A DNA stretch of 49,622 bases from Catajapyx aquilonaris (GCA_000934665.2 JYFJ02002869.1:1-49622), one strand, 5' to 3'. Counted from the first letter of the stretch, positions 15,132 through 49,622 are shown. Translations and numbers: made by a program. The notes: generated from the sequence alone by a model not told the origin.

Positions 15132-15132
<1 letters not shown>

Positions 15133-15474: not shown

Positions 15475-17051
15475 CTGTGCTTCAATTTGTAAGCAGGCTA
15501 ACTTCGTGCCACATTTCTCACTTATTAATTTTATAGTAATCTGAAGAAAATAGATACTGGGTAAATAACTAAATATTCTTCGATTTTTGTCAGTAGGCCT
15601 ACCTTGGTATTTTTGTTGTTGTATGACTCCAGGTAAAAATTAATGAACAATCCCAAAAGTGTGGAACCCAAAAGTAATGCCAAAACTCTTGTGAACTTGG
15701 GATAATTGCATTCCACAAAGAACAGGAAGGATTCGTGTATCATCAGCACAACAAATTGAGCCTAGGGAAGACACGGAAACATCACTAATATATTATAACT
15801 GACTTCTCACATATCTGGGGGGAATAATAAAGCCACAATATTATATTATTGATAAAGTATGATGGGAGTTAATTATCTGTTCAATCGGTTTTTCTTCTCT
15901 TCGTGTTAATTACACGAACAACCTTTTTACCATCTGGAGGACAGTCAGGTACCGTTTCCACCACAGGTACTTGTGGTATCCAGAGGCAGACAAGAGGTAG
16001 TACGTGTACATCAAGACGTGAATGAAGGAGTTGAGCAGCAGTAATAGAGTGTAATGTCCTCCTTTAAAGAAAGATGCAAATCAGTAGGTAAATAGCAATT
16101 TCAGAGCAGTTATCCACAGCTCAATCACCTCCAATGAATCTGACGATGTACCACACCCAACACAGTGTCGCAATGTGATGGTACACGTGCAGGAAGCTGA
16201 CCTGACTGTAGCTCTTCCTCAGAACAAAAAACACCTGATCGGACAACAAGTTGGATCATTAATATTATCATAATTGCTTCAACCACGTCCAACGTCTTTT
16301 ACTCTTGGTTTCATTGTTGACCATCGTGTTTGAAGCCATAATATGATAATTATAGGGCTTGTTCTACTTACAGTATCGAGCCAATCGACCACTTTGGCCA
16401 GCAAGTACCACCAACAGGCGTACACCATCTGCAAGAAAAAGGTCAACATCATTGACAAGCAGGCTAATAGCTGTTCGAACAATGCAACAATGGCTACAAT
16501 GGGTTACTAATGGAATTGCTTATTTCACTTCTTTCACTAACCGTCATGGCCTGGGGACTCCTGGAAAAATCGCTCGGTTGACATATGAAGCTGTAACCAT
16601 TGAACCAACCTCCTCTCACGCACTAAAATAATAACAGACATACCGTATACAGTATAAGCGTGATCAATATAATATGCAGGACTCACCAGTGTGATGATCC
16701 ATGCGTTCTGGACAACTTGAAATAGGTTATATGCGATCATTGTATTTTTTAGCTGGAATGGTTCTCTACCAGTCATGAACTTGGGAAGAGCGTAGCATAC
16801 CGTAACCAAGTACACCAGAGAAGCAAACAAAACAATGAAAATACTGTTCATCAATGGCAGCTCCAACAGACGAGGGTCTAAAAATAATCACAGGCGTAGA
16901 GTAAGAGAGTGGAGAATAAACACATTTAAAAAGCCTTACCTTCATTATTATAGAACAAGTAGTTGTATTGCTTCATCACAAATGAAGTCAATAATTCACT
17001 CCCATTTTCGCAACTGTCACTAAACCTTTGAAGGGTCTGGTCCATTTCCAT
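15475..17051 (-). CDS. ELOVL-A: very-long-chain fatty acid elongase (ELO/GNS1/SUR4 family); 3' end uncertain
   Basis: Exons 17051-16940, 16877-16687, 16622-16542, 16428-16372, 16234-16129, 16061-15931, 15761-15603 and 15540-15475 splice in frame. Motifs [61 protein letters not shown]. Possibly ends in a micro-exon at 14980-14966. Confidence 0.9.
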
Positions 17052-21098: not shown

Positions 21099-24000
21099 TT
21101 TGGCCACTTGTTGTCCAGATGATGTGAACTGCCCAAGTCCTTCTTCAATAATGGACCCACAGAAATACTACAACATTATAAAATGTTCCCTCGTGCAGCC
21201 TGCGTATCGCCTTTCTTCCCATATAATCACACAATCATATGCACAATGTTTATATCCGATTCGACCTGAAAGTAGAACCACATTTTAATTTATAGAGCTA
21301 GCCCGAATTTCGTGAAGGGGCTAACTTTACGTTCTCCAGATCATTACTCCGGACGGAAAAAAAGTTGCCTTTATTTGTCATTGCGTAAGAAGAATAACGC
21401 CAAAAGTTGGTCAGTCAACAGCAGGAGTGCGATTCTGAATTAGGATTTAGGGTCCTTCTCTGATTGGCCAGCCTAATCCATGACATCATGACTGATTAGG
21501 ACCCAGTTCGGTGTGGTTCAAATATGAGTGTTTAAAAACCTCGGTCTTGAATGGAAATAAAGTGTTTGAGTAAAAAAAAGTAACTTACCATCACCCAGCG
21601 TATGTTTTGACATGTTCTAATCGGGATTTAAAATTTAAATTATTTTTAGAAGAATTCTAGGAAGAATACAGCTTGACAGTTACCTGCCTAATATTTTTAA
21701 TTGTCCATTGCTGATAGAAAATAATGTTATTGCTGCACTGAAATCCTTTACTTCTTTTCGATAAGAACACAGTTCCCCGCTGCGGCAAAGAGTGTGGCCT
21801 GCTCCATCAAATCGCATACGAATGTGGAGCTCATTATTACGATTCAACCAGGGAATGATGTCGATCTATCAAGCTTTTAATGTGGCAGTAAGTTTCATTT
21901 AACTGACATTAATGAGAGTCAAAAAAGTTACTTGACTGGTGTTGTTATTTTTAAAAAGTCGAAATGTAGCGGACTTCAATCGCAATGCAGTTTACTTTGG
22001 AATCGATTAAGGCAGAACAAGGTGCCCAATAGAGAGGATGGCGTGATTAACATACTTTGCATATGGAACACCGTGACAATATCATGGGGCGCAACAGGTC
22101 CAGCCAGAGTTTGGAAAAAAAAACTAACTGGAAATTTGGGTCGAATATTTTGAGGCAAGAGAGATTGTGGGCGTCATTTTCTGGTTTGCAGCTTTCTGCG
22201 TATATAGAGAAACGTGGTTATATTAGTTTACACATAAAGGATTACAATAAGACGACGGACTATAATTATAGCCAATCATGAGAAACCTCTCCTTCAAATT
22301 AGACATCTTTTTAGAATATATTGATATTTCTTCTAGGATTTAATCCCATTCACACAGACGATATTGTTTTGCCTGATTGAACTTCAAAAACTTAGCCTAC
22401 TTTTGTATCTAATGCTGAGCTACAATTTTTTGAGGGTGAACAAAATTGTTATACAGCCTTGAAAAGCTGAACTCTGTTTTTGTACTATACAAAAAGTTCA
22501 TGAATAATTGTTTTGTTTCATTTTATCATTGAGCACAATTTTTCGCAGTTCGTTTATTACTTGATAGGTGTTTTTACGAACACATTATTATGACCAAGTG
22601 CCAGCAATGGCTGCCGATTATGACATTAGTGAACCATAACCTATTGTATAGGAAAAGTTATAAGAAAATTCCATTTTGGCAAGACCGCTTTCACTTTTTT
22701 TTCTGGTAGCATATACTGACCACTCTAATCGATAATGGCATCAATGTTTGGTATCAAAATAATATGCTCTCAAGGTTTCGCAAGAAAAGAGGGCGTGAAC
22801 AGACAAATATGTCGGTTCTAGGAGGTATATTTTGCAAAAAAGTATTTATCCAGAAATGCAAATGTGCTGCGTCATCATTACATACATGGCATTAAAATTG
22901 ACAATGTCACGGTAAAATTAATATTGACTAAATGTAAATAAGGAACAAGTCAACGTAAGTTGAGTAGATTACTTTACTTCATTAATGAGTAATGCGGTTC
23001 GGCATTTAGTGGCAATGTAATATGACTAAATCATGTCCATTGCACAACGTTTTTGAAACTTGTCAAGTGAGTCGATAAATTTTGACTCGAAAGAAGGCCA
23101 ATGGGGTAGTTTGCTACCCACTACCTTTTTAGACGTAACAATTTTCCGATCTAATTGTCCCACAGAGGTTTAAAAAATACTATTATTACTCTTTTTTATA
23201 TAATAATACCAGGCGTTTGTTAGGCAACAACCATGGGTGCTGCATAGGGTGTGGACAACTTGTAATTTCAACATTAGAAAAGTCATCGCATTATAATACT
23301 GGCATGGACTGGTTGCTTTTAACACTTGTGGAACCAGCTGATTAGCATCATGTAACGCATTTTAAATTTTGGAATGTAAACGATCGTCGTCAAATGTGCG
23401 TTGCTTGTTATCGATATACAAGAAAGGAGGGCGTTGTGCGTAATTCATTGGGCGCTCAACTTTCACTCTCAAAAACTGGATGAAAACAAGATCGACAAAT
23501 TCAAAATAAATCAACAGGAGCATGGAAAGTAATGTCACACACATCATTACACCAAATGAGAATAGAAAAAGAATTGAAGTAACAGCATGTGTACATATTG
23601 CAGGAAATGGTATGCAATATAGCGGTAGTCTATTTACTATAAGTAAATGCCATTATGATACAAAGTAATGAAGTCTGAATTTTTAATGTGCACGTTACAT
23701 AATTATTCAATTGTGATGCTCCAACATACTGTTCGTATTCAGGAGGTCGTCCTGAGAACATCCCATCATCAACGCTGGCTTTGAACTTTGAAGGGTGAAA
23801 AATCATACAATAGCAAGTTTCGTAATCGTGTTATTAATGTTCCTGAAAGCGTGACCTTGAATAATAAATGCAAATGTGCACAATTCAGTTGTCAGTCGCT
23901 ATCACCTTCAAATTGCTGCCACATATAATGGGAGAAAATAAGCATATTTCACTGTCACTCTCCATGGAAATGGTGGACGTTCAGTAATTGAATATCGGAG

Positions 24001-24271
24001 CCAGTAAAAGATGGATCCATTTTAATATGGCATGCAAAAGGCCCAGTAAAAGGAAATTCTGCTTGGTGAATTAGCCGATTCATCGAGGGCGGTGCTGCTC
24101 ATCCATCAAAATTGTAGTCTATGCACAGATCAAAGGAAGACGATGATTGTGTAACATTGCACCGGAACAACGATGTGATAATAACACCTTTGCGTGCGAC
24201 TCTCTGCAATATATTTGAGCGCGGGGCTACAATATTTTTGCGACAGTCGGTATTCCGCCTGAGCTGAGACC

Positions 24272-26460
24272 ATGAGGCCACCTTTACTCCTCACCGCTCT
24301 GTTACTCTCATTTTGTGAGTATCATTTTTTCATGTGCGTCAAGTAAACATTACTCCTGCAATTATTAAGCTACTTCATGGCGCGTTATGATTCTAGTCGA
24401 GTGCAATGAGGGACAGGATCCGTATCCAGACATACAGTTCTACACCAGCAACCTTCCAGCAACAATACTGCAGCAGTTGACTTATTCTATGTCAATTGTG
24501 GCGACCACGAACCTGTTTGAAAACCAGAAATGCTGCGGTAAGCTTCGGATAAACTTCAATGACTATCACAGCATAATTACAGTATGTCTTTCTTTTTCAC
24601 AGCCAATTTAGGCTGCTTTGACAATGGAGGAAGAACCCACTACTTACTGGGCCTGCCTGACTGCAACTTCATGGAGACCAAATTCTATCTGACCAATTCA
24701 GCCAAGCCTTCAGTCACTCGTGTCCTGCCTTACAACAATGCAGGGCTTCTGGAAAGGTCCGGATACGACAAGAAGTGTCCCAGCGTGTACATAATTCACG
24801 GATACACAGAGTCTGCCAAAATTAAGTGGATGAAAGAAATGAAGGACGCATTGTTGAGGAAGGTATATGCATGGCATGCATTTACAAGTGTGGGTTTGTC
24901 AGATGTTCATTGTTTCAGTACCGAAATTCGTGCGTCAATGTGATCCGAGTGGGCTACGAAGAGATCTCAAATTTTCTCTACACCGACATGTCGCGGCATG
25001 CTGAACTGATAGGTCGAAGAATCGGATTCTTCATCGGAATGACTGTCCAACTGATGGGGGCCAATCCGGACGACATTCATCTGGTAGGATTCAGCCTCGG
25101 AGGAATGATCACAGGCTACGCCGGACAATTCCTTCTGACCAAAAACATCAGCGTTGGTCGCATTACAGGTACTGTGCCAAATAATGCGCAGGGGATGTCT
25201 TACAAATTATGAATTGTTTCAACTTGATTAGCCTTGGATCCGGCCGGACCAGGATTCTGCTCCTTCTCCCAATTCTCAGCTGGATACAAGCTGAATCAAT
25301 CGCACGCTCAGTACGTCATGGTCATACACACGAATGGAGGAAACATTCTCCAACTCCAAATGGGATGCATGGAACCCCTGGGGCACGTGGACTACTATCC
25401 CAACGGTGGACAGGAACAGCCGACTTGCAAAACCAGCATTTATGGTCATTAACTGGTGTTTTGATTTTCAAAAATGCAAATAATATTCTGGACACTATAT
25501 TTTGCAGGCCTTTTCGGCTGCAACCACATGTGCGCACACGCTTACTTCACGAGGAGCATTTCGAATGAGAACTGCTTCAGGTCCTTCCCAGCTGCCGATT
25601 ACACCAAATTCAAAGAGTATGTACCGAGCAAGTCAACAAACGCAATAGGAAACATGGGCTTTTATTCGGTTACCACGAAAGCTAAAGGAATTCAGTTTCT
25701 TAAAACTTCCGACCATGCACCATATTGCGGTGAGATTCAATATTAATAATTTCTCTTTCACGTAATATATACGCACAGTCATGTTCTTCAATTGTTGGTG
25801 TAAATTATTACAGGAAGCCAGTTTAGGATTGAAGCGACAACTAAACGTCCGGCCATCCCGACATTCAGTGTTACTCTTTCGGATGGCACTTTCAGCACCG
25901 AAAAGATGAGCGTACATGCCACGTGAGCATCTCAAAAATGTTCGGTAATAAGAATGGGCTGAGGATAATAATTATGTCGAGAAAAAATAGATAGGCTATC
26001 GTACAATGGGCTAGTTTGGTATAATCCCGTGTGTGTTTTGCAGGAGATCGACACATATTACAAACATCATTGTTAGCACCATCGCACGCTTAAATTTTGC
26101 CGCTGGAAGAGTTATTACTGCAAAGTTTAGTACAAACCTATCACTTAAATCTTTGGTGATAACTAATGAAGATGGATTAAGGTAAGCTGCAACATCGGAC
26201 ACTGGTTGCTTGGGCTCATATTAAGGGAAAAATATTGTTATTCTGCTATTATGTGTACAGAAAATATTCACAGGGGATAATCCGAGAAAGCAGGTTGATT
26301 TCCTCTTTAATTAGCGTTCGTGCAACCGGCCCTCACTCACTGAACTCAAATATATTTACATTTTTCTCCCCATTACAGCAAGTATTATTGCAACAATAAT
26401 GCCAAAAGTACGGTGCCAGCTGCCAAATTCAGAATAAAACTCGACGACAACAAGTGTTAA
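24272..26460 (+). CDS. Lip2b: pancreatic-lipase-family protein, 9 exons, intact
   Basis: Exons 24272-24314, 24397-24537, 24603-24862, 24919-25168, 25232-25444, 25508-25729, 25814-25922, 26044-26181 and 26379-26460 in frame. Signal peptide MRPPLLLTALLLSF; IIHGY, GFSLG, ALDPAGP, CNH. Confidence 0.9.
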
Positions 26461-27184
26461 AACCAATTGGGACAGACAAGGATTAATACGGCGGATTTCT
26501 GTCAGTTTGGAATAACTTATCCAATATTAAATGACCTTGATTTTTTTAAAAAGATTACAGTAGTCAAACTCTACACAAATGTACAGTACAGTACGTCGTT
26601 GAATCCCGTATAAATTGCATGATATAAATTTGCAATGCATGAGAAACGTTGTTATGGTAATTAATCGCTGGAGCTGCAAAAGTAGCAGAAATGACTATTT
26701 TTCACTCAAAACATATGGTGATAATATCACCAATCGCCATGCACTCATACGTATAGACCTTCGTTGCTACAAAAATGATTTAAAATATGAAAATCATTGG
26801 AAAATATGTAATGACCAATCCACAAATCAGTGCTGCCCTGGCATAAATAAATTCCATTCTGCAGTAGATGTTTTCGAGAAATCACTACCGTATCTCAAAT
26901 ATTGTGGATTTTGAAAAAGTGTCAGTCATCGCCGGCTTCTAGAAGAGAAACACAATTTTATCTTAGTTCTGTGCTCCATTATCCAATGTCCTGTTTCGCT
27001 CAGAACCATCCTATCCATATAGTAAATATTTTAATTGAATTTTCAGTGAATAAATATATCATAAAATTGTAGTTAAATTTAAAACACGTCCTACGTATGT
27101 CAACTTTTTTCCTGCCTGGTGCATTTATAGGATTAAGATGGACCAGAAAAGGAGGGCTCTACATAATATTTAAGCACCGTTCGA

Positions 27185-27185
<1 letters not shown>

Positions 27186-27264
<79 letters not shown>
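27186..27264. repeat. (ATT)n microsatellite
   Basis: Perfect trinucleotide run left of the SINE. Confidence 0.95.
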
Positions 27265-27600
27265 TACGTTACCCCGTGCTAGGGCCATGGGCCCTTATAG
27301 GGGGGTGGATTACCACCATTTTCCTTCAATTTTCTTATTATTTTCTTCTAACACCGGTGCAAGGATGAAAGGACAAGAGGTAAGGATAGGGATTTTCGGG
27401 GAGGGAACATGGGTGCAAGTGCACGTCTGAAAACGGGTCATGTGCTATTCCCCAGGAGGTTAGGTTGCCAGACACCTCCAAGGTGCAGGTCAGAGACCCT
27501 CCCGACGCAGGTGAAAGGAAAGTTCCCCAGGCGGGGATCGAACCTGGGGCCTTTCACTCAGCAAGCCGAGACGTTACCATCACGGCCACCACACCTCCCC
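27265..27600 (-). mobile_element. tRNA-derived SINE inserted into an (ATT)n tract
   Basis: Minus strand begins GGGGAGGTGTGGTGGCCGTGATGG (A box) and contains GGTTCGATCCC (B box), followed by an (AAT)n tail. Absent from the duplicated site at about 11680-11700. Confidence 0.85.
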
Positions 27601-27608
27601 TTATGATG

Positions 27609-27683
<75 letters not shown>
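27609..27683. repeat. (ATT)n microsatellite
   Basis: Perfect trinucleotide run right of the SINE. Confidence 0.95.
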
Positions 27684-27684
<1 letters not shown>

Positions 27685-28266
27685 CTTGTGATGTAAAAAA
27701 ACTTTCCGCCGCTCTAAATTACAAGTATGCGACGGGATGGCCAGGCGTAAAATAATTCACAGAATAGAGACAGATCAGCAAATCCTTCGTGATCAATTTG
27801 GCAGCTTATCCAGCCCTATTGCTATTGCAAAAGATGGCATACATCAAACTAGAGTCATAGCAGTGCGTCATTAAGCCCTGTAAATGCTTACAACACATGA
27901 GATATATTTATGGATAGTAATGTCTGGAGCAGCAGAAGTACATGACTGTGTAGGATTTAGTTGGTAATACAGTACTTACTTTACATGTGTTGACGCAAAC
28001 GGAAATTTTTTGATCAACAGATCGACCTGCAATACTCCTATTTTTGTTTGAAAAACCACCTGCATGATTGTGTATGCCATCTGAAAATTACGTACTTAAA
28101 GCAATCTCTCCTTGCGAAACAAGAGTATCTCAGACATACTTTTCCCCACACGTTGAACTGTATTAAAGAGGCAATGCAATATATTGCCCTTTAAAATGTA
28201 TTGAAATGTATGCAACCACATTTTTCAGTAGGTATAGCCTCATTGCAAGCAGCAGATTCCAACAAT

Positions 28267-30686
28267 ATGCGTCGCTTTTTCATCCCTCTTCTCCTCGTTT
28301 CCACTGCTGGTAAGTGACTCTTTGATCGCCTTCAGTGCAATCTTCACAAACTGCGATTCTAAAGACATTACTGTGTATTTATTTCAGTCAGTGGTATTGA
28401 AAAGCCTTGCTGTCCTTACGCAATTTTCGACTACGACTATTATCTGGGCGACCTTGACGTTTTAATTTTGGATCAACTGAAAGCTGTGGCGGAAGCAGTG
28501 AATTCAACTGATTTACTTGCAGATGAAGTGTGCTGTGGTAATGTTTTCCCCATTTGAGTTTCGGCGCATTTACATAGACTCTTTATTCACAAATAAGCGA
28601 GACTCTCGTTGGTTGTGGCACATTGCAAAAGAACGCAACGACATTTTTCCGGTGCGGTGAATATTAAAATACGGATTTTTAATATTCAAATGCAGGTTTG
28701 CAAAAATGAAAAGAGGCTATTGTTTTATTGGGATGTATTGCTTTCCAGGAGAACCGATTGGCTGCTTCAACACTGGTGGCAGAAGCCGCTACTTGCAGGG
28801 CCTTCCTAATTGCAACTTTAGGCCAACGAGATTCTACCTGACCAATTCAGCCGACCCGTCCAACGTTCAGAATCTCACTTACGACAGTCAAGAACTATTA
28901 TTAGGGAGTAATTACAATAAGACTTGCTCAACAATCATAATAGTGCACGGATTTACTGAGTCTCCGTTCATCACTGGGTTGTGCGCATGCAAGAAGCATT
29001 CTTCTGGAAGGTATAGTGTATGGAAGGTAGTACTTCGACTTAATATTACTCCGTCACATAACTTTCATTGCAGTACCGATATTCACGTGTGAACGTGATC
29101 CGAGTGGGTTACAACGAAGAAAGAGCGGACTGGAACCTCGTGGACATATACAGGAACGCGGAGATCATTGGCCGAAGAATCGGGTATTTCTGTCAACTTT
29201 TAATATTACTGGGCACCCATGAAGACGACATCCACTACGTAGGCTTCAGCATGGGAGGACTGATCGCCGGTTTCGTCGGAAAATATCTGAAGATAAAATA
29301 TGGCATCGTTATCGGAAAGATATCGGGTAAGACTGATGGTCCTTTTTTTGCAAGAGACCAGCTAATTTTTGCATGTGAGGACAGAACACTTGAAACTGCG
29401 CTATACTTGTAAGCTAACTATGAATGTCTGGCATCTTTTGAAGCGTTGGATCCTGCTGGTCAAGGTGGCTGCTATTTGAGGCAAATAAGTGGTGGTTACA
29501 TGCTGGACAAGTCCCATGCCAAGCAGGTGATGTGCTTGCACACAAACGGAGGCAACATCACAATGGACCAAGTGGCCTGATCCAATAGGACACGTCGATT
29601 ATTATCCAAACGGAGGACAGTTTCAACCTACGTGCTCGAATCCAACTCTCTGTATGGACAACATGATTAAAAATAATGTGTATCAGCTGGCAATCAATCT
29701 TACCATGTTTTTCCCCCCAGTGAACGCGTTCTGCAGCCATTTATCCGCACCGGCCTACTGCATATGCAGCATACTCTCAGAAACATGTCGTTTCAAGTCC
29801 TTCCCAGCTTCCGACCACAGAGATTTCGGAGGATTCCTCAAGGGAGATTACTTCGAGTGCAAGGGAAACTGCGGAGAGATGGGCTTCCCCACGTTTGAGT
29901 CCAATGCAACTGGAGTACAATTTCTCCTTACTCACGCCAACCCTCCATACTGCGGCGAGTTATACACTTGCATATACGTATGTAATGCACTCTTTGGGCT
30001 TAAACGGCATTAACATTATGTCATTACAGGAAGCCATTTTAAGATCAGTATCACACTCTACACGCCAGCAATTGTGGCGTCGTTCATTACGTTGTCAGAT
30101 TATTACAACCACTCTACTGGGGAAATGCTGTTTTTAGCAGTGTAAGTATGACTCTATATTAGTCTTTTTTATTTATATATAAAAGGTTTCGGTCAATGGT
30201 GTCCTGGAGCCATACGACCCTTACTACTCTAGATAATTATCATGCACTTGGCATAGAATCATGAGCATTTTATATAGCGCTCACATCAGCTGTTTCGTAA
30301 ACTTGATTAGCCGTGTAAGCAGCATTATTTTCCTCACGCCGCATTTCACTCTTTGTTTTATTTGCATTTGTGCCATTTCAGGAGCACTTCGAATAAAGTC
30401 ACCGAGGTGGTTCTTGGAGACTACGCTCCATTGAATTTCTCTCCGGGTGAGGCCATTCAGGCAACAATGAAGCCTTACTTACTGCCCATCAAGTCTATGC
30501 AAGTAACCAACGACGAGGGCGTGAGGTGAGATGGAGTGCTGAAAATAATTGTAATGTTTCTTCAGGAGTTACCATCTTCTAACTTTGCAATCTCATTCCA
30601 GCAAGTATTACTGCTCTTCCAGTCTAATCGGAATTAGTCTACAAACACAAATATTATTACGCGATCAACCGTGCTACATGCCATAA
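28267..30686 (+). pseudogene. Lip3b: full-length 9-exon lipase gene with two frameshifts
   Basis: Exons 28267-28309, 28388-28537, 28749-29010, 29074-29326, 29444-29651, 29721-29954, 30030-30141, 30382-30525 and 30602-30686. 1-nt loss at about 28973 puts WVVRMQEAFFWK out of frame. A 5-nt deletion creates TGA at 29578-29580 (Lip3a has TGC TTT GAT). Either lesion could be an assembly error. Confidence 0.82.
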
Positions 30687-32682: not shown

Positions 32683-34810
32683 ATGAAGAAATTGCAATTA
32701 TTTCTGGGTATATACTGAATAATTACCTCTTGCAATGCAATATTCCATATCAACACTTTGCTTTTTCATATTTATTAGTAACAGTAGCATCTATATGCAC
32801 AGCAGATGTCGATTTAGGAAGAGACATACCTGAAAGCAAGATTACTTCTCCAATGTGCTCCAGGATTGCCCGTGACGTTAACCGCGTACTGCAAATGCTG
32901 AGATGGAATATTCGCGACAATTCAACGACCGCTTGCTACGGTAAATGCTCACTTATGCTTCTTAGAACGGTGGCTAATAATAATAATTTGGAAAACTCGA
33001 TCGGCAGGAGAATTTGGGTGCTTCCGACGAACGGAGACCAGTTACATTTGGGGCTTGCCTCGAAACCAGACGACCTACTTCATTCTGACAACCTCAACAA
33101 ATCCAAACACAAGCACGAACATCTCGTACGAAAGCAACTTCCGCAAAGTTGGATTTGACATCAGCTGTAAAACCATCTTTATCGTCCACGGATGGACCCA
33201 AAACACCCAACGAGGTTGGATCATCGACATGCAAGACCGACTCTTTCTCTTGGTTAGGACGATTTATCCGAACGATTTATCTGTTCCTGTTTTTTTCTAT
33301 ACGTTTAGTTTGCGGGATAACCCGAATTATACCATTCATTTGCAGGAGCCGTGCTTTAACATTGTAAGAGTCGACTGGGGTAATAAGAAAAACTACAATT
33401 ACGTCACAGCCGCCATAGAATCCGAGTTGATCGGGCGACAAATGGCCGTCCTAATTAGGAATATGGTCCAGCAAGGAGCAAATGCAAGCGATTTTCATCT
33501 AGTTGGATTTAGCATGGGAGCTCACATTTGCGGATTCTGCGGCCACTTTCTCATCCAAAAATATGGCTTGACACTTGGAATAATAAGCGGTGAGCCAGCT
33601 GTGCACAACCGTAGGCACTTACAGCATTATGTAAATTATTATTACCTGCTGATGGCATTATTAGAAATGTCTGCTTGCTTTAGGTTTGGATCCTGCTGGA
33701 CCTTTGTTTTGTTACTCTGGGCAGCTGGCTTCTGGTTACAAGCTGAAAGCGACACAGGCAGACTTTGTTGATGTGATTCACACGAACGCGGGAAACCTGA
33801 TCAACAGCCAGGTCGGATGCTATGAGAGTCTGGGTCACGTTGATTTCTTTCCAAACGGAGGTCAAGCACAACCAATGTGCTCAGGGATAAGTGAGTCCAC
33901 ACCTTTGCACTCCAGCCTGCATACCATGAAGGTTTAATTGCATTTTCTACTCGGCCGACAGACAGTGCATCTTGTAGCCACGCAATGAGCACCATTTATT
34001 ACGTCGACTCATTAACTGAAGGACCTTGCACTCTACGCACTTTCCCTGTGCCTCCCTGGACACCTTTTCAAAAATATGTGGATGGGGAATTTTTCGAGTG
34101 CAATAACGGATGTGGAGAGGTGGGATATTTTTCAAACCGCCATCTAGGAAGAGGATGGCAGTATGGATCAACCCTCAAAAATTTTGGTTATTGCGGTACG
34201 AAAACTCACTTGCACTTGTAGGTTTTTTCTGAAATTGATGCACCTTGTCTATTGTTCGTGGACTTTATTTATTTATTTCCTCAGGAAGCCAATATAAATT
34301 TGATATTAATCGTCAAAGCCTTGTCTTCCCATTTCTCCAAATGAAAGTCATTTTAGAAGACATATCAAACGTCACAACCAATGAAATGAAAATAAAGTTG
34401 TAAGTAGCAGTGGTAGCACAATAGTATTTTCCACCAAAGCAATGTGAGGTACTTTTGCTTCCAACAAGCAAACAGTAACACAATAATGAAAAAAGTAACT
34501 TTCAGCAATAGAAGAAAAACTGTTGCCGTAAGCCGATATTCTCCACTGAAATTTTTAGATGAAATTACAGCAGAGGTCACGTATGGATTTTTGGAAGCAT
34601 TTTTCTTTCACAGGGATGTAAATCTGGCAATAACAAATGAGGATGGTATCAGGTACGTTGCTCAAATAATCATGGTCCTGTATGTCCTTAAAAACATTAA
34701 AATCATTCAGAGTAATAGCGTCTCTTTTCAGTGTATCTCCCTGCTTACATGCCTGGAAACCAACTAAGGGAAGAAGCCACTTCATTGAAAAGCTTCGAGC
34801 GGATTGTTAA
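32683..34810 (+). CDS. Lip5: pancreatic-lipase-family protein, 9 coding exons, intact
   Basis: Exons 32683-32707, 32779-32940, 33008-33252, 33346-33589, 33684-33890, 33962-34195, 34285-34399, 34506-34652 and 34732-34810. Motifs CYGEFGCF, IVHGW, VDW, GFSMGAH, GLDPAGP, FVDVIHTNAG, GHVDFFPNGG, CSH. AATAAA at 34835. Confidence 0.9.
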
Positions 34811-39489: not shown

Positions 39490-39758
39490 ACCCAAATGAC
39501 TGTGGCTTTGTTTACAGCAAAAAAAATCATAAGAGGAAGGTCAAATTGGTGAAGAATTGGCGCAGTGGTATATTTGTTTGAGGAAGTAAAGTCATGAAAT
39601 CCTGAAGTCTTCATTTTATTGCGCAGTTTTGAATGCCTCGGATATCTTTAATGCTCCAGTGTTGTGAATGTGAGATTCCTCTTCGGTTATGATCAGCACA
39701 TAAAATTCAGTGTACACAAGTCGACGACCAGTGGCTAGAAAGCCTGCCCTCCTATTTC

Positions 39759-42700
39759 TCAATTCGGGCAAGCGATATCCGCTAAGGAGATATTACTGTG
39801 CTTACCGTTACCAAATCTAGACTTCAATGTATTGCAGTAGAATTTGCTGAAAGATGATTTGGTCATGAATCAACCGTAAGTAAGTTTAGATAATAAGAAT
39901 GATTTGGAGGTGGCTCATTACCCTACTCCCGTCTCACTCAAGATACTGAGGCTCGTTACGCCTCTGTACGAATGAAAATGAACCGTGGCAGCCACAGGTT
40001 TGGTGTAGTCCAACGTTGAGCATTTGCTGATCCCCACGTAGGAGTCGCTCTTCATGGAGCTGGGCGAAGCATGAAAAGCCAATAATTTCATGCATAAATG
40101 TTATGACCTGTGCTTATTGTCATTATTGTTGGTGATAATAATAATAGGACTCAAAATTAATGTTACTGAGTAGGTAAAATTATGAGGTTGGAAGTCACTC
40201 CGTCGGTAAGTTCAAGCTTGTTGATCCTCAATCTCCTACGATGTTTCATAATAATCAGGAACTGTGTACCTGCAACAGATTTTTTTTTTTTTTTGCAATC
40301 ATGCACACTTTTCCAAAAACAATGCAATGACTCACCAAATAACGGTCGCTGGCCTCGAGTGATCAAGTACTGCGTTCCTCTACCAGGGTAATCGAAAGAT
40401 CTATATCCCATGACACCGCATCCGTTCGGTTCGCACGAAAATAACTGTCCATTCTGGAAATCCTTGAAACTCGAACTTGCTGGTGCTGGAAACGACCTAA
40501 ACAAGCAATCTTTGGTGTGCAAGCTGGCATCGAAGTATGTCACGCTCATTCCGTGATTGCAGAAAAAATCACCTACAATGGTCAATATATATAATAAGCA
40601 CCATATGACTGTGTGCATTGGATTTGAAACATGCTTTATTATTTTCTAGTAATAATATTATATTGAATTAGTAATATCACCCTTCACGTCTTTGCAATAT
40701 GGCTGACTTTTCCCGCCATTTGGAAAGAAATCAATGTGTCCCAGACTCTTAGAACAGCTCAGCTGATTGAAGGCGACGAACCCAGAGTTGGTGTGGACAA
40801 TGTCCACCTTCCTGGCCTGTGACGGGTTCAGGTGGTACCCGGCACCTACTTTGTTCAGGTAGCAAAACATCGGGCCTGCTGGGTCCAGACCTGCACGTGA
40901 AGTATACGTGTACTTGTCAGTGCATTTCGCACAATCATAATAATTCGGCAAGAACTTTGCGAATGATTTTTCCAACGTTTTACCTGTTATACGTCCAAGC
41001 GTGAGATTGAAGCCAGTTCTCAGAAACTCCCCAGCATATCCTGCGATTTGAGCCCCAGTACTGAATCCCACGATGTGAAAGTCATCAATATCAGCTCCCA
41101 TGGACACCATGTTTCTTATCACCACTGCAGTCAATCTGCCGACAACCTCCGCGTTCAGACCGACCTCGATGTAGTTGATATTTGCATACTCATTCCAGTC
41201 TATCATCACAGTGTTGACACACGGAAGCTGAAGGAAAGTGCATCTGCATTAGTGAACAACATTGATGTTCATTTCATTTGATGAATATTCGCTCAGTCAG
41301 ACATACTTTCATAAGCAGTGACTTTTCGATGTTCGACATTCGATTCTCTTCTAATGTGTTTTGATATCCGTAGGCAAGAAAAATGGTCGGACAGGTGATA
41401 TTAAAACGGCTGGTTCGTACTGTCTCCTCGTCATTGTACATCAGTCTCTCATGCTCCGTGGGATTGGCTGTCGTCCTCAAAAAAAACTTTGTCGTGTTGG
41501 CGTAAGCACTCGTAGGAAGCTTCACAGCGTAGGTAGTAGGAGTCTTGTAAAAGCAGCCGATAAGATCTGTGAGAGAAATGTCGGTGTCGTTAGAAAATAT
41601 TATTCAGTCTTAGCTTTTTCAATATTAACGGCTGCCACGTCAGGAATGTGTGACAATGAGGTCCTAACCTTGGTCTGGGATTTGGGAAATTTTTACACGA
41701 AATGCTCAATCATATACCTATAAACACTCATTTGACCACTTTTCAGCACCAAAATGTCATTCCTCGAGATATTATCGCGGGTTTAAAAGTCACTCTAAAA
41801 GTGGCGTGGAAAAGGGGGCGTGGCTTAAAAGGCGCATTCCCACTCCTGCTGACCAAAGTGGCGTCAGCAGACAGGTGCACCAGCTTTGCTTTCGATTCCG
41901 TTGGTAGGGTCGCCAACAAAGCAAACAAAGGAACAAAGCAGCCCGGGTGCGTTCCTGCCTCTGCACCGATCTGTTTGGCCACAGTGTCGTCAGGGGCAGG
42001 ACGATATCGTATACAACAAATATCATCATTTTTCCTGTCCATGAGAATTCATCGCCATTTTCGTGTTCCTTAGGCCGCTCATAACTCATAATGACCATTC
42101 ATTTTGTGTGGGATATGTTTTAGACCTCGAGGCAGTCAAAAAATCAAAATCCCCGAAATATTGGGGTCATTCCGAATCAAGTGGGCCAAAAATTTTCTAG
42201 GCCATTTTGGATTGTGCTGAATGAAATCACAGCCGTACACGCCTGCGCCATAACGCTGCATATCAATTTCAACCATATTACGCAATGCCATGATAAGGGA
42301 GAAATTCGCGAATTTTTGAAAATGGCTGGAAATTAGTTTGGATAATTTTTTCTGTTAGTGGAAGAGATAAAACCCCAATCAAAATAAGGTAAACCTACCA
42401 ATTTATACACCATCTTAAGGGGGGGAAATACGGATTTTGGGTTTTTCACATAACACCCAAAAGAATAAAAGGATGTCACAGCCATGTCTGGATAATCCAT
42501 TTCACGGTGCTCTACCTGAATCTATGTTTTACTCTCCATAATGTACCAGTAGCTATATGGAATACCGCACAGTGAATTTTACTATCATGCAGTATCACGA
42601 CCCTTTCGTGACACCTGTTTTCGCCCCTTTTATGACACCTTCAGCCCAATTTGTGACACCTGTTTTTGTCAATTCTATGACACCCATTTTTTTTTTCGGA

Positions 42701-44807
42701 ATGTTCTAGCTTTTATTTTTATTGTGAAAACCAGTTTTTTCCTGTATGATGGTGGTTCTAGATTTTGTCTGAGTCTGGACTACTCTATCAATGATGTTTT
42801 TATGCCTCTTTCTGAAGAGTATGTACTGTACACAGTACTCCTGATTATCTGTGTTGCGAATTATCGATGCATCAGCACAAAAAGTTAGAAATAAAAGTCC
42901 CGAAAATGTCAATTTGTCTCGCAAATGCAAGGAATACCAAATCCTGGCAGGATCCGATCACCGTAAACGACTGAAAAAGATATTTATCGAAAGTTCCTTT
43001 TAGGCCCTTTTCATAATCATAAAACTATTACAATACGATTGTAATGTAACAATTCGAATGTAAATAAACACTATTTCTAAGGGTGTCATCAATTGGCAAA
43101 TGACAGATTTCAGTACCCAATTTCTGACACCCACACTAACTCTTTCAATGCATCGTTACGATTAGAACAAACATTCACAAGAGGAAAAGGACATGTTCAA
43201 TTACTAATTGTAACCTTTAAACTGTTTCCCCATTTTTTAAATAAACTTGTAAGAAAATTTTTGAAACGAAACTTTGCTCTTAACGGAATTGGCTTTTCAC
43301 TCCATGTTACACTGTGGCTGTGCAGCACTTGACACTCTAATTTATTTCTTGAAAACCAACTCACCACTGTCCTTCACCTCACTACAGGTTGTTAAATAAA
43401 GATCGGCAGTGCTGTGGTTAATTTCTGTGATGCATTGTCTGTATGTTGATGTTGTATGTTGTATGTTGATATATACCTATACGAGTATTTTGATTGGGTT
43501 TTGACCATTTCCACTAATCGAAAATAATTCATCAAAAAAGGCTTCATTTTCAGTCATTCCTAAAATCTCGCTATTTTTTCCATCCCCAGGGTATTGCGAA
43601 ATTTGGCTGAAACTTGATATGCAGCGTCATGGCATATGTGTGTACAATATATTATGATTTTTTCAGCAAAATCTGAGATGGTCTAGCAACATTTCGGTGC
43701 ATTTAATTCGAAATGACCCCTATTGACCCCTATTTTGACAGCCCCGAGGTCAAAAACAAATCCCGGGCAAAATGAATGGTCATTATGAGTTACGAGTGAC
43801 CTCAGGAACATGGAAATAGCGATGAATTCCAATGGACAAATATCGTGTTGCATAGTGAATTAGCATGGCTTTAGATCGATCATAGCTCTAGAACTAATAG
43901 TCATACGCATTTCTTCAAACTAAAAACACCAAAATCCCTTTTAAAATAAGAACTATTTTCTACATTGGTTTGCAAAATGTAGGCTAGGATCCCATTATTT
44001 GGTTGGCATAACTCAGACTTGAACCAAAATGCATTTTGCATTTCAGGTGTTCTATGTCTGATTAAGATGAACTCACCATAGCAGACCTTAGCAGACGAGA
44101 ACAATCTCTTTCCAGGAACAAGGCCAATGAATTGCGCAACCGATCTTAATATTCCTGTGATGGGCGTGATGCTTTTGATTTTGGACAGCAGACGACCGGC
44201 GAAGTGTAGTTTCGCTGGAGCCGGTGTGGGTACCGCTGGAGGCGGTGGCGTCACAGGAGCAGGAGAAACATCGTTCGATTCTTTCATTTGCTTAAGATAC
44301 GCCTTATCTTTTTGCTGCAAGTTGCCACCTTGTTGCTGCAAGTTGCCACCTGGTTGCTGCAAGTTGCCACCTTTTTGCTGCAAGTTGCCACCTGGTTGCT
44401 GCAAGTTGCCACCTGGTTGCTGCAAGTTGCCACCTGGTTGCTGCAAGTTGCCACCTGGTTGCTGCAAGTTGCCACCTGGTTGCTGCAAGTTGCCACCTGG
44501 TTGCTGCAAGTTGCCACCTGGTTGCTGCCAGTTGCCCCCTTGTTGCTGCCAGTTGCCATCTTGTTGCTGCCAGTTGCCACCTCCCTAATCAGAATACTTC
44601 CAGTTATTACCATATTGGTTCTCCTGTTGTTATTGCATTACATAAGACCCCCCCCCCCNTGACTATAATACTGGTTGTAACCACTCGCCTGCTGCTGGTT
44701 TGATCCTCCGGAATACTGGTTGTAACCACCTCCATATTGCTGCTGTTGGTATGCCTGCCCCCCGTAGCCATTCTGCTGTTCATACTGACCCTTCACATTT
44801 GTGGAAC
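39759..44807 (-). CDS. Lip7: pancreatic-lipase-family protein with a Gln/Gly/Tyr-rich repeat N-terminal extension; exon 1 not found
   Basis: Exons 41566-41307, 41227-40984, 40890-40681, 40572-40336, 40269-40167, 40059-39922 and 39846-39759 in frame (GFSTG, GLDPAGP, CNH). The upstream exon region 44807-44077 ends KVCY-G|GTGAGT and joins to give CYDLIGCF. It contains two in-frame stops (44630-44632, 44585-44587) and an N at 44659. Confidence is higher for the lipase core than for the 5' part. Confidence 0.75.
42036..43838. mobile_element. About 1.8-kb non-coding element with long imperfect terminal inverted repeats, in Lip7 intron 2
   Basis: 42036-42390 is an imperfect reverse complement of about 43485-43838 (for example AACTCATAATGACCATTCATTTTG / CAAAATGAATGGTCATTATGAGTT, and GCTGCATATCAA / TTGATATGCAGC). 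Inner GGGGTCATT...AATGACCCC ends (42163, 43720) are each flanked by TATT. Confidence 0.75.
44310..44582 (-). repeat. Coding minisatellite, 13 x 21 bp, encoding (G/D)GN(L/W)QQ(P/Q/K)
   Basis: Plus-strand unit TGGTTGCTGCAAGTTGCCACC. Confidence 0.95.
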
Positions 44808-46566
44808 CTAGAACTAATCACATATCTCGTTGCAACAGGCGCAAGTGCAAGTGCCACATCGAGTATCTTATGGGGCCATATATAAAGGACGCCATCTGGA
44901 CATTCTCTCATAAACTGTATATCTCTCCACATCGCCAAACAAAATTCATGTCTTTCAAAAGTAACTAATTGATCCCCCCGATAATGGGAGAACAAAATGG
45001 ATTTCCAATATATCGTATTCTTAAAAATTTTGGTGCGGGATGGAGAAAGTTATGAACTTATGCGCAGCTGTTTTCTCATAAGCAAATAGTATCGGAACTA
45101 ATTTTGCTGTTACATAATTTCTTTCTCGTGGAAGTTGTCCAGGATTACATAAGAAGAATAGCTAAACTCAATTGTTGCCCTTTATTCTTTGAATTGCAAA
45201 TATCTGGTCTTGAAACGTCACAATTTTCACTTCTAAGATTGAAACAAAAGGCTATAGTTGCACAATGTGGCAATTGGTGGCAGCGCTTCAAATGGCGCAT
45301 TGAAGTGAACAGCATTATGAACGCTCCCATCATTATATACGTAAAGTGTCACTAAGCATTGTTTCATTGAACAATGTGTGAGTCAAACGTTCCCTCCCCA
45401 ATATGAAGAAGTCCTGCCAACGGAATTTGAAGAAGATGATGATAATGATATGTACGGATTAACGTGTCATTAAAATTAAAATTCGGGAAGGTTCCCAGCA
45501 CCTTTTTGGTCATTCCAAAGGAGAACAAATATTGCTAACTGTCCACTGTCGAGACCGACTTTTAAAAACTCAGAGAATAATAGGAAAAGCTGAGTTTAAT
45601 TTTTTGTCTAATATTACGAGAGACAACTAAAACTATTGTCAAGAAATATAGCACACGTCCTGGACGGTATAGTACCCTTCGATCAATTATGTCATTTTAT
45701 GAGTTTATAGCGTCACATTAGCACCTCATCCTTGTTCAGAGTGAGTCAAAGTTATCCAGGTGTCAGTGAAAGTCCGTTATGCAAGAGTGGGAAATGTCAA
45801 TATTAAGCATAATCATTAACAATGATGGACGGTTGGTTTACCTTCAGAAACACTCTTACACTATTACAGATAAGGCCACAATCACATTCCGAGTCATAAA
45901 TTACGTTCATCGGTTGGTTTCCGGTTGCTGTCTCGGCATTTTTTGCCCTGTACATTTTAAAATTACTGTGTTAGGCCAATCTAGCTGGATAGCCTCTAGT
46001 TATGACTCACCCTGTATATCACAATTGATCAATCACATTGTGACCCCCCCCCCTCCCCACCTGACCCCTACAAGAGTGACGTCCTCTATGGAAGACCCCT
46101 TAATAATTATACTTGCGCAGGAAGACGGCTACAGCTGTTTTGAAGTCAGTCATACCCAAGCAATCCACTTATTGGAAGCCAGGTCTGCTTACGTACTGTA
46201 TGTTGCATTACACGTGTACTACACAGTCCTCACTTGACGCTTACGCATTCTCACATCACTTTGTGCCATTATATATGAAACAATAAACTGGCGAGAACTG
46301 ATATATTCTTATGAAGTACATGCCGTCTCAGGATTAGAATCCCAGATACAGGGAGAATATTACTCTTGCAAAAAAAAAATAAGAAGAAGAAGAAGAGTAG
46401 GACTTTTACACGGACTCTTGTCGCATTATTGCCTCACGAAATTGAAGACGTTGAAAAGAAATTACTAAAGCAGACTACAGAAAAATTTATCAACACACTT
46501 CCAATCAATTCAAATGCCCTTCTGCACCTTCAGTTGCAAACAATTACCTTTAAATACATGAAAATC

Positions 46567-46629
46567 AAATATTTTATGGGGCTGTACACAGAGCACTAAA
46601 TGCTCTCTGTACAGCCCCATAAAATATTT
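46567..46629. repeat. Near-perfect hairpin with 29-bp arms and a 5-nt loop
   Basis: AAATATTTTATGGGGCTGTACACAGAGCA-CTAAA-TGCTCTCTGTACAGCCCCATAAAATATTT, one mismatch. Confidence 0.9.
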
Positions 46630-47145
46630 ATCGGTGGCCATGTACAGTCTATATGGAGGCAGATAAAAAAACTTAATAACACATGCACCGAAAGAAGATA
46701 TCAAAAATTAGGTACAATACCTCTACAGTTAGTAACACATGGCCATACAAAATAACAAGCTGGCAATAAATAAATAACGTTTTCCCATCGGTTTTTAAAA
46801 ATATACTAGGCACCAATTTGCCAAGATTTGGCACAAAATTTGGCAAAATTCCGAAAGTGGAGGGAGGAAGGGAGAGACGATGACAAGGCAGCGACGTCAG
46901 ACGGTGAAATTCCGAAGTAGGCGAGTCGCCACCCAGGAGGTGGGGCCCCGCGCCCGGAACGGCGGAAATGAGAATTACGTCGAAATATAGCGGTTGGTTT
47001 ATTTTAGGCGTTCGGCGTTTTTGCGTTTTATAAATTCCCTGGACACTATTTCCAAAAACAAAAAAAAACAAAAAAAAACACAGATGTCTATTACAAACAT
47101 AGAAAACGCGGGCTAAATTTAGACATCAGTCCCAATGCTGTAGGC

Positions 47146-47330
47146 CAGTGGTTCCCAACCCTTTGGGTCGCAAAGCCTTTTCCGGGGTGTCGCGCGTGGC
47201 CGCGGTAATTTTTATAAAGTAAAAAAATCACTATTTTTTAAAAATCAAACAGTTTTATAGGAATTTCATCGTGAAGGGTTTTTTTTTCCAACACATCGGG
47301 TCACGACCCGAAAAAGGTTCGGAACCACTG
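47146..47330. mobile_element. 185-bp hAT (Charlie-like) MITE
   Basis: TIR CAGTGGTTCCCAACC / GGTTCGGAACCACTG. 8-bp TSD CTGTAGGC at 47138-47145 and 47331-47338. Confidence 0.9.
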
Positions 47331-49007
47331 CTGTAGGCCGAACGGCGCGGGAGGAGTCGTGGGGACAGTCGGGTATTATTACTAATAACTGACTATATAG
47401 GTAAGCGCAAAAACTTCAGTGAAAAAAGGGTAGTAGGACCTCCGTGGCTGAATGAAACAAGGCAAGGACACGACATAAGTCCTTCACCAATTGATTTGAG
47501 CTGTACCATAAAATAAGTCTTACTCAGCAATAATTTCTTGTTGTGGATAATACAAACACCAAATGAACTCAAATGGTCAAGGCTGTGGTCCGTGAAATCT
47601 TCTGGGAAGGTGGTTACTCGTGGAAAGAGTGGCTAATGACAGGGGACTATTCAAATTGCCAGGCAAATATAAGAAACGTAATTTCAGCAACTCGCGCCGT
47701 TATAAATCTATATTGATTTATCTCCTGAGATAGGATTAGCTCAATGTTTCCTTTATGCGCTTCCCTTGCCACAAGTAAGAATGGTGAGTAATCTCAGAAA
47801 TCAATCAAATTCATATTATGTTAAAAAATACAAATTCTCCTTTCCCTCAGACTCCATTTGCACTGTCTGTAACTCGGGTGATACTTGGTCTATGTACAAT
47901 GTGGCATTTTTTTTGCTTTTTTAAGAAATAGTAAGTTGGCAGGAATCCCAGATTTACCACAAGATAAGATACATACCCTGTTCGCATTGATGCCATCAGC
48001 TGCTATTTGCCAAATATATTCATTTTTTCAGCAGCTGGGGATTACCTAAATATTATTGTGACATAATTCTCTAAAAATAAGGCAGAAATATGGTTGATAG
48101 AGAATGTTTGTAGGGGAAGTCTTCCCGAATGTACCCAATATACATACTCGAGCAATAATTTCCCATTTACTGCTCATGAAGTCTCCTTTAGGAAAACTAT
48201 TTGCGGAATTTTCATCGTACTACCAAGAGCTCTTGGTACTACTAGTTACTTCTACCACTGTAGTGCAATGGTTTCTGCTAAGCTAGCAATAACATTTGCG
48301 ACGAAAATAATTTCCACCCATTAATTTTCCGAGTCACGCCATATATACTTGTATGTGATTTCTGAAATTATGAACTTCAATATTAAGCACATTCCATTCT
48401 ATACGATTGGTATAATAATTATTGCCATGAAACATTTATGCAGAATCGTCACCTCTTTTAGATGCTGATTTGAACTACGAATGTTTCATTCTTCACAAAA
48501 ACGTAAATTGGTGAATTTTCGAGGGTCTCTTTCGATTGGATTCTCCATTTTCAGGAGCGAAAATTCCCAAGTCTGTGAGGATGGGTTCAGTTCCCCCCCC
48601 CCCCCCCTCATTTTTTTCCAAAACAAAACTCTGCCTAGTGCTCTGAATAGTTTGCAGTAGTACAACTTTTTTAGGAGCCATTCCTCACAATTCTTCAGAA
48701 TAAATTGTTGAGTAAGACCTATGGTACAGCTTAAATCAATTGGTGAAGGTCTTACGTGCGCCTGCCTTGCTGTTTCAGTATTTTCATTCCGCTACGGAGG
48801 TCTTATACTACCCTTTTTTCACTGAAGGGAATGTTTTTTCTCGTATTTCAGTTCTTTTTTGTAAACCCCTTCGCTACCAGCTATACCGCCATCGCTTAGG
48901 TTTTCGCTTACACGTACTCTGAAGATAAGGAGAAGATATTTTACCAATAACAACAGCTATATAGTGATATACGTATCATATCATACTCACACGTTTATGC
49001 TCTACAC

Positions 49008-49080
49008 CAGTGGTTTTCAAACTGGGGTACTGTACGTGTACCCCTGGGGGTACGCGAACACAATTTTGGAGGTACGAGAA
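49008..49080. mobile_element. Isolated hAT-MITE-like end
   Basis: CAGTGGTTTTCAAACTGGGGTAC...TACCCCTGGGGGTACGCG resembles the TIR at 47146. Partner end not found. Confidence 0.4.
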
Positions 49081-49622
49081 AGATTTTGGCCAATGGCGTC
49101 CAGTCACTACATTTGTGGAAACCCTAATATTCTGATTCAACCATCTGAAGGAACCAACTGCTGAGAAAACACAAAAAATGGTCCTACTTATTCCCATCTT
49201 TCGTTTTGCTATTATTACAGTTGCATCCGGATATACCAGACTTTAAGGGACCGAGGAAAATAATCAATCTGTTATAACCGAAAGTATGTTACAGCCGAAT
49301 CTGTTATGTCCGGATTCAACTCTATTATTTTAGGGAAGATTTATTATATATACAGGGCATTTTCATGGAAGCCTATCCGGGCCTGGCTACCAGTGATCTG
49401 AAGTACTTAATACCATTTACTAACTGCCTAATTACGTGAAGCTTACAGTATTTTTGCGTTGACGTCCATGAAACCGAAGTACCGTCATCGACTCTATGTT
49501 GAGAAAGACCTCAGTCTTTACGCCATTTGTGAAAGAAAGAAATCACATCCATCGCACTAACTGATAGGACGGTGCCCACAATTACAATTTTCAGGTAGCC
49601 TAACAGGTCGGAGTGGGGGGGG

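Follow-up and report, generated by a model that had tools for sequence, protein, structure and literature searches.

A lipase exon with a possibly nascent low-complexity domain in a tandem lipase array of Catajapyx aquilonaris

Introduction

PLAT-less pancreatic-lipase-related proteins of the family PF00151, such as Montipora P0003 and Ptychodera P0015 'pancreatic lipase-related protein 2-like', carry a lipase domain with Ser, Asp and His motifs and end soon after a conserved C-terminal motif. We describe here Lip7, a gene with a lipase domain of the same kind, in a 49,622-nucleotide (nt) stretch of DNA from Catajapyx aquilonaris (GCA_000934665.2 JYFJ02002869.1:1-49622). This whole 49.6-kilobase (kb) stretch, called the window below, is eukaryotic DNA with introns and the standard genetic code. 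It holds eight tandem loci of the pancreatic lipase family, seven on the + strand (Lip0 to Lip6) and one, Lip7, on the − strand. The Lip7 group shares with the PLAT-less proteins the end soon after the C-terminal motif, and a coral lipase has the same Lys-Val-Cys-Tyr ahead of Gly-Cys-Phe as Lip7, but identity between the PLAT-less proteins and the array is only 28–36%. Unlike these relatives, the array copies have an extension of 46–53 residues, encoded by exon 2, between the signal peptide and the first Cys. Lip7 may differ further by adding ∼130 low-complexity residues; its signal peptide was not found within the window.

An earlier interpretation made from the DNA itself (the sequence-only reading) had noted a Gln-rich open frame that appeared to splice into Lip7. 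It proposed a lipase fused to a Gln/Gly/Tyr-rich, repeat-built N-terminal domain, which would tether the enzyme in a secreted matrix. In our analysis the observation was partly confirmed and its interpretation partly supported. Taken as a whole, the case is that of an ordinary lipase exon with, possibly, a nascent low-complexity domain.

Results

Exon 2 of Lip7 and the lipase body

On the − strand, the frame 44584–44078 is open for 169 codons and ends in Lys-Val-Cys-Tyr plus one base (44077) at a consensus GT donor, just as the sequence-only reading had stated. Splice sites were scored with matrices made from 21 donors and 22 acceptors of the window lipase genes (15 and 19 distinct), with the candidate sites excluded; by leave-one-out, true acceptors scored −9.1 to 5.5, with a median of 1.0. 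The 44077 donor was at the 99.4th percentile of 10081 GT/GC sites. The − strand from 41567 to 49622 has 27 sites of the form 'Cys, one residue, phase-1 GT', and of these 44077 alone has a consensus donor. Joining it to the acceptor at 41566, which is in phase 1, rebuilds the Cys...Gly-Cys-Phe motif, and the design of the junction at this motif is alike in Lip7, Lip1, Lip3, Lip5 and Lip6. The phase-1 end of exon 2 is common to Lip1 and Lip3, where it follows Cys-Cys, and to Lip5 and Lip6, where it follows Cys-Tyr. The last 26 residues of the frame resemble the exon 2 end of Lip1 and Lip3 (p 0.0005–0.001, local alignment with 2000 shuffles) and, more weakly, that of Lip6 (p 0.02) and Lip5 (p 0.06). 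Because end, phase, donor, junction motif and 26-residue similarity all match the paralogues, the 3′ end of the frame is very probably exon 2 of Lip7, and the splice to 41566 over a 2.5-kb intron, as first proposed, is well supported.

Downstream of this junction the lipase body is in order. The Lip7 exon frames matched Pfam PF00151 with 96.8 bits (E 2e-27) and 33 bits, where the cut-off is 27; taken by itself, the exon 3 frame gave 22.8 bits, under that cut-off. From exon 3 to the first stop the spliced model is stop-free for 373 codons and contains the Gly-x-Ser-x-Gly motif, the Asp-Pro-Ala-Gly loop and the Cys-x-His motif, which we take to supply Ser, Asp and His of the catalytic triad. Lip7 is 27–53% identical to its paralogues, Lip5 being the closest for exons 4–5, and the locus aligns with residues 33–344 of the 347-residue coral lipase. 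Being this diverged and still stop-free with its Ser, Asp and His motifs, Lip7 looks like a live gene; we take this as evidence for an old, intact gene that is, or very recently was, expressed. At its C-terminal end (40166–40345, −) Pro-Leu-Phe-Gly stands in place of the conserved Pro-(Phe/Tyr)-Cys-Gly, and the frame continues for ∼55 residues past it, including a run of five Lys, up to the stop.

Exon 2 of Lip0, Lip1, Lip3, Lip4 and Lip5 runs from phase 1 to phase 1 over 153, 141, 141, 150 and 162 nt. In these five of the seven other copies it encodes the 46–53 residues between the signal peptide and a Cys-Cys or Cys-Tyr end; in Lip6 alone exon 2 is short, at 60 nt. With such an extension in most copies, the premise that lipases start close to the first Cys, on which the sequence-only reading had relied, fails here. 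The extensions begin Pro/Tyr/Asp-rich and then form an amphipathic helix in three or four of the five; their net charge is −8 to +1 in the five paralogues versus +8 in Lip7. This extension of the lipase array could be a propeptide.

For the start of exon 2 in Lip7, the acceptor whose first exon base is 44235 is by far the best (score 3.5, 97.4th percentile of 5418 AG sites, phase 1). The exon 44235–44077 fits the array in its phases (1-1), its size (141–162 nt), its 46–53 residues and its Cys-Tyr end, with similarity significant for the last 26 residues only. The 52 residues that it encodes have a net charge of +8 and an 18-residue hydrophobic moment of 0.52. Since exon 2 encodes a 46–53-residue extension in five of the seven other copies, this basic amphipathic segment is the family's normal exon-2 product and not part of a new domain. 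A 78-nt exon 2 beginning at 44154 was rejected for its weak acceptor (78.7th percentile).

The low-complexity frames

The repeat lies 5′ of this exon in the same open frame. Tandem Repeats Finder reported a period of 21, 12.9 copies, 95% matches and 0% indels, confirming the 13 heptad repeats of the sequence-only reading, and 8 of the 13 units are identical at the DNA level. The only in-frame Met of the repeat frame is codon 100 (44287), in the spacer between repeat and exon 2.

A Tyr/Gln/Gly-rich stretch had been read as contiguous with the repeats; it proved to lie in another frame. On the − strand it is open from 44817 to 44641, with no in-frame Met, and it is separated from the repeat frame by an N (44659), a run of 11 G (44658–44648) and two in-frame stops, TAA at 44632–44630 and TAG at 44587–44585. 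The assembly's uncertainty at base level (the N and the G run, 44648–44659) coincides with the frame shift between the two low-complexity frames. Both stops are taken as real because the paralogous lipases terminate with TAA after the C-terminal motif: the first stop past that motif is TAA in Lip0, Lip1, Lip3 and Lip4, within 1–4 codons in three of them. A genetic code with TAA and TAG as Gln, suggested by the Gln-like positions of both stops, was rejected, since TAA ends those four genes. Mini-introns of 18–26 nt at the two stops were rejected too, being far below any intron seen (the smallest measured in the window is 58 nt).

A single 104-nt intron (44688–44585, −) would take out the N and the G run together with the frameshift and the two stops. 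Its GC-type donor, with last exon base 44689, scored 5.8 (99.8th percentile, phase 0), a value reached by 31 of 10081 sites. Its acceptor-type site at 44584 scored 0.7 (89.2nd percentile), also in phase 0 and exactly at the start of the repeat frame; the AG of this acceptor is supplied by the stop that bounds the frame. Upstream, an acceptor at 44807 (score 1.5, 92.1st percentile of 5418 AG sites) lies four codons past the stop that opens the Tyr/Gln frame, in phase 1 as is every exon-1 donor in the array. Joining 44807–44689, 44584–44077 and exon 3 gives 295 codons with no stop. The family has a precedent for a GC donor in Lip0 (last exon base 3407). That donor forms a GC-AG intron at 3407/3408 (+), after a Gly-Arg-Ile-Thr-Gly motif, where all paralogues have GT. 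An in-frame model with repeat and enzyme in one polypeptide thus exists; it requires the GC-AG intron and read-through of the strong acceptor at 44235. Coordinates of the exons, introns and repeats are collected in Table 1.

Lipase-like codon usage was higher in the Tyr/Gln frame (+15.5 bits) than in the other two frames (−12.7 and −29.0); this score mostly tracks stop content and does not separate the hypotheses. Candidate exon 2a, the 5′ piece of the long model, matched no Pfam family.

Table 1. Positions of the lipase loci and of the confirmed and candidate parts of Lip7 in the window
Feature	Position	Strand	Description
Lip0 to Lip6	∼2.3, 7.1, 12.0, 24.3, 28.3, 32.4, 37.5 kb	+	PF00151 family loci
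Exon 2 of five lipases	2616-2768, 7269-7409, 24397-24537, 28388-28537, 32779-32940	+	46-53-residue extension
Lip7	41566 down to 40166 (exons 3-6)	−	eighth locus; sole inverted member
Lip7 exons 4-6	41227-40984, 40890-40681, 40572-40166	−	Gly-x-Ser-x-Gly, Asp-Pro-Ala-Gly and Cys-Asn-His motifs; stop 40163-40165
Lip7 exon 3	41307..41566	−	phase 1 start; residues completing the Cys...Gly-Cys-Phe motif
Lip7 intron 2	41567..44076	−	2510 nt; 67-211 nt in paralogues at this position
Lip7 core exon 2	44077..44235	−	159 nt, phase 1 to phase 1; 52 basic amphipathic residues plus one base
Spacer	44236..44311	−	25 codons, Lys-rich then Pro-rich; coding linker or 3′ end of intron 1
21-nt tandem repeat, 13 units	44312..44584	−	heptad Gly-Gly-Asn-(Leu/Trp)-Gln-Gln-(Pro/Gln/Lys) in the frame entering the lipase exon
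Candidate GC-AG intron	44585..44688	−	104 nt; holds N, run of 11 G and both stops
Candidate exon 2a	44689..44807	−	Tyr/Gln/Gly/Asn-rich low-complexity frame; phase 1 in, phase 0 out

Translated or intronic repeat

Sequence alone cannot tell a translated repeat from an intronic one. We tentatively favour, at slightly under even confidence, a model in which at least some Lip7 transcripts carry the low-complexity region as coding sequence joined to that of the lipase; in its simplest form this alternates with the use of 44235. Supporting the extension, the repeat period is a multiple of three and the 169-codon frame runs unbroken into exon 2. We began with a low expectation that a young minisatellite would be coding when a good acceptor follows it after 77 nt; this expectation was raised by frame continuity, by the period of 21 and by the two in-phase splice signals, and lowered again by the strength of 44235 and the rarity of GC donors.

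The chief rival is a canonical Lip7, in which a 159-nt exon 2 (44235–44077) is joined to an exon 1 more than 5.4 kb upstream, and the repeat and Tyr/Gln sequence are non-coding DNA in an enlarged intron 1. We consider this a serious possibility, with a probability clearly short of even. If acceptor 44235 is used, the repeat and all sequence upstream of it lie in intron 1. The open frame would then be a by-product of T-poor, stop-poor composition, and the 'Pro-rich linker' a polypyrimidine tract.

A number of results weigh against translation of the repeat, and many of them fit this canonical gene directly. The strong acceptor at 44235 lies inside the supposed long exon, in the phase of the family, and the exon it opens is within the paralogues' 141–162 nt, its 52-residue product within their 46–53 residues; in the alignment with Lip5, 44235 lies no more than one residue away from where exon 2 of Lip5 begins. 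Paralogue similarity ends at about the same place: the 52 residues upstream of the homologous part match no paralogue (p 0.23–0.94). The Pro-rich linker and the basic amphipathic segment are both present as the sequence-only reading described them. The DNA of the linker, though, reads equally as the polypyrimidine tract of the 44235 acceptor, and the segment after it, as noted above, is an ordinary exon-2 product. The eight identical repeat units indicate a very young minisatellite, and intron 2 of Lip7 has already been enlarged by repeats to 2.5 kb. Two stops and a frameshift break the low-complexity frames.

Open frames come easily in DNA as poor in T as this. All six frames are open through the repeat; the Tyr/Gln part is open in two sense frames out of three and in one antisense frame. 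After dinucleotide shuffling, the 52 non-repeat codons that precede the homologous part were still free of stops in 19% of cases, and the full set of 78 non-repeat codons in 4%. Because the repeat is open six ways and the 52 codons so often, frame openness tells little in favour of coding; as a test against the intronic explanation it is not significant. In codon usage the non-repeat part scores 0.0 bits, which is neutral, and one antisense frame scores +11.1. Nor does the Gln/Asn/Tyr look prove coding, because the candidate intron itself reads as low-complexity Gln/Asn/Tyr.

The GC-AG intron adds its own cost. Such introns are put at ∼0.8% of junctions in human and mouse coding genes in one report (PMC7242645), which also describes them as enriched in first introns and in alternatively spliced genes. 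Their rarity makes any model that depends on one a priori unlikely, and this one came out of a search for a frame rescue. The long form also shows no start codon or signal peptide on the − strand as far as the window end.

What a canonical Lip7 leaves to coincidence is the period divisible by three (∼1 in 3) and the unbroken frame into exon 2 (∼1 in 2–3). The 92nd-percentile phase-1 acceptor and the 99.8th-percentile in-phase GC donor would likewise be there by chance, by rough estimate at a few percent each. Its exon 1, too, was not found in the window.

Database searches bear on the same question. A phmmer search with the 169-residue frame against 1.84 billion representatives gave 726 matches. 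Among the best 150 of these, nearly all lie in the repeat, a few extend into the Pro-rich part, as far as residue 131, and not one takes in the basic C-terminal segment. The repeat-plus-lipase architecture, which the sequence-only reading proposed to look for in related genomes, did not turn up, and this too counts against a translated fusion: PF00151 was found in none of the 136 repeat-matching proteins scanned (from the best 150 of the 726 matches, 14 long ones left out). One of the 136 had an unrelated GDSL lipase domain. A word-based search with residues 93–169, confined to longer proteins and equally unfavourable, scored none of 485 candidates, and the ESM Atlas held no usable match to the 78 non-repeat residues. 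Among seven longer proteins and 13 of nearly the same length, the best identity to Lip7 was 36%; with no close relative among them, these offered no orthologous N-terminus for comparison. A lipase fused to a low-complexity domain of this kind was not found described in a literature search of limited coverage.

The missing 5′ end

In Lip0, Lip1, Lip3 and Lip4, exon 1 consists of Met and ∼13 hydrophobic residues and ends at a phase-1 donor. Our scan for such a piece recovered all four (Lip0 and Lip4 at a stricter setting), and yielded no credible Met-initiated hydrophobic piece with a phase-1 donor on the − strand from 44236 to 49622. Because the scans were empty, exon 1 of Lip7 either lies beyond the window, more than 4.8–5.4 kb off as against 58–264 nt in the paralogues, or has been lost. 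With no canonical exon 1 near exon 2, the 5′ end of Lip7 is unusual in any model.

Loss is the basis of a second rival, which we judge improbable: the canonical 5′ end of Lip7 would be gone, removed for instance by the rearrangement in which the gene was inverted, and the gene would have been silenced recently or would start at Met codon 100 (44287). In the latter case the protein would have a 70-residue Pro-rich, basic N-terminus that lacks a classical signal peptide, and the repeats would belong to a leader or to DNA close to the promoter. Besides the empty scan, this explanation is favoured by Lip7 being the only inverted member of an array that also holds dead 5′-truncated copies (Lip2), and by an orphan exon-1-like piece on the + strand. 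Against it, Lip7 diverged anciently and is nevertheless fully intact, down to the exon 2 donor and every splice site, which argues for continued expression as a secreted disulfide-bonded enzyme; moreover, the segment past Met-100 has no N-terminal hydrophobic core. The orphan piece itself is short and weakly hydrophobic, and similar chance matches are frequent.

This piece (∼39633–39669, +) consists of Met and 11 residues up to a phase-1 GT donor and lies between the 3′ ends of Lip6 and Lip7. That the inversion of Lip7 left it behind as an orphaned exon 1 is an idea to which we give low weight; it may also be a chance match.

Very improbable is a separate + strand gene for a small Cys/Pro-rich repeat protein in the antisense frame 44127–44585: the frame is open from Met to stop with codon usage of +11.1 (non-repeat) and +18.9 (repeat), but it overlaps a demonstrable lipase exon 2 on the − strand, the antisense of coding or stop-poor DNA often has open frames, and a Pfam scan of + strand 44082–44585, in which this frame was not scanned separately, gave no match. 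The antisense of the whole repeat frame (44082–44585, +) is open as well. The Met-to-stop frame within it reads as Cys-Cys-Lys-Leu-Pro-Pro-Gly heptads, which we take as a mirror artefact of the stop-poor repeat.

Other features of the window

Intron 2 of Lip7 contains an inverted pair of ∼350-bp repeats (42036–42386 and 43486–43838, 73.6% identity), by which it is enlarged. There is a further inverted pair at 47414–47531 and 48704–48827, and a 63-bp palindrome at 46567–46629. These inverted pairs and the palindrome are probably remnants of small transposons. A Pfam scan of 61 open reading frames between 41.3 and 49.4 kb, some of them in intron 2, gave none above the cut-off, and an Rfam scan of 41000–49622 matched no family.

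Elsewhere in the array, a two-lipase unit has been segmentally duplicated: Lip1-Lip2 and Lip3-Lip4 are 89–94% identical (6609–9999 with 23724–27145; 11681–13163 with 27663–29962). Lip2 (12007–13163, +) is a truncated, dead copy of Lip4 (28267–29962); it has no counterpart to the ∼670 nt that carry exons 1–2, and its exon 3 is short by ∼163 nt. Lip0, Lip1 and Lip3 terminate 1–4 residues from the C-terminal motif; Lip6 continues for 6 residues and Lip4 for 19. Long AAT/ATT-type microsatellites at ∼14990–15140 and 27170–27710 can be read as poly-Asn or poly-Tyr. At 16343–16400 (+), a 19-residue Met-initiated piece resembling a signal peptide runs up to a GC donor-like site and may be the first exon of an unrelated gene.

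Discussion

The region appears to be the 5′ part of Lip7, the eighth gene, old, inverted but intact, in a tandem array that encodes secreted lipases of the pancreatic type. Exon 2 is very probably spliced over a transposon-swollen 2.5-kb intron to 41566, and the low-complexity sequence would be a young in-frame 5′ extension of that exon. In the long form, splicing would join an upstream exon outside the window to 44807, take out the 104-nt GC-AG intron (44688–44585) and pass over the old acceptor at 44235. The resulting lipase would carry, N-terminal to the basic amphipathic segment, ∼130 prion-like residues rich in Gln, Gly, Asn and Tyr; most plausibly, this prion-like region would cause the enzyme to self-associate or to adhere within a secreted material. 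Were the upstream exon joined to 44235 instead, an ordinary lipase would result.

A bolder version goes further. The lipase would recently have captured a prion-like Gln/Gly/Asn/Tyr repeat when a minisatellite in its first intron was exonised, the choice between acceptors 44807 and 44235 would take the repeat in or leave it out, and the long form would anchor the enzyme in self-assembling secreted material such as glue, an egg coat, a plug or a biomineral matrix. We regard this full scenario as unlikely. Both matrix tethering and a role as transglutaminase substrate, as the sequence-only reading had suggested, are hypothetical and drawn from composition.

If the long form is real, it is a new domain caught arising from an intronic minisatellite beside an existing exon, with the old splice site kept, and a lipase fused to a self-associating low-complexity domain. 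If it is not, the locus is a warning that stop-poor simple sequence and polypyrimidine tracts can mimic a 'Gln-rich domain plus Pro-rich linker'. Whichever model holds, the 46–53-residue exon-2 extension common to most lipases of the array is an uncharacterised feature of the family.

Comparison with known systems

The N domain of yeast Sup35 and the octarepeat of PrP are short repeats of Pro, Gly, Gln, Asn and aromatic residues with a propensity for self-association and a Tyr/Gln/Gly/Asn-rich flank, to which the Lip7 repeat can be likened. Sup35 and PrP are cytosolic or glycosylphosphatidylinositol-anchored and have no enzyme domain, and the likeness to Lip7 is one of composition only.

A secreted enzyme and a tandem repeat in one polypeptide are described in a report on bivalve shell matrix (PMC4066178), where nacrein-like carbonic anhydrases carry a Gly-X-Asn repeat; they serve here as the model of an enzyme incorporated in such a matrix. 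This is a resemblance of design only: the enzyme family is unrelated and the repeat differently placed, and for Lip7 both translation of the repeat and residence in a matrix are hypothetical. The other such case came from our phmmer search. Its match P0094 and the Lip7 repeat show 65% identity where they align, a low-complexity match that does not imply homology. P0094 has a secreted-type tyrosinase domain (PF00264), thus a different enzyme, and its repeat, an array of Pro-Gly-Gly-Asn-(Asp/Asn)-Gln-Thr heptads, stands at the opposite, C-terminal end; the Pro-Gly-Gly-Asn core of these heptads is that of Lip7.

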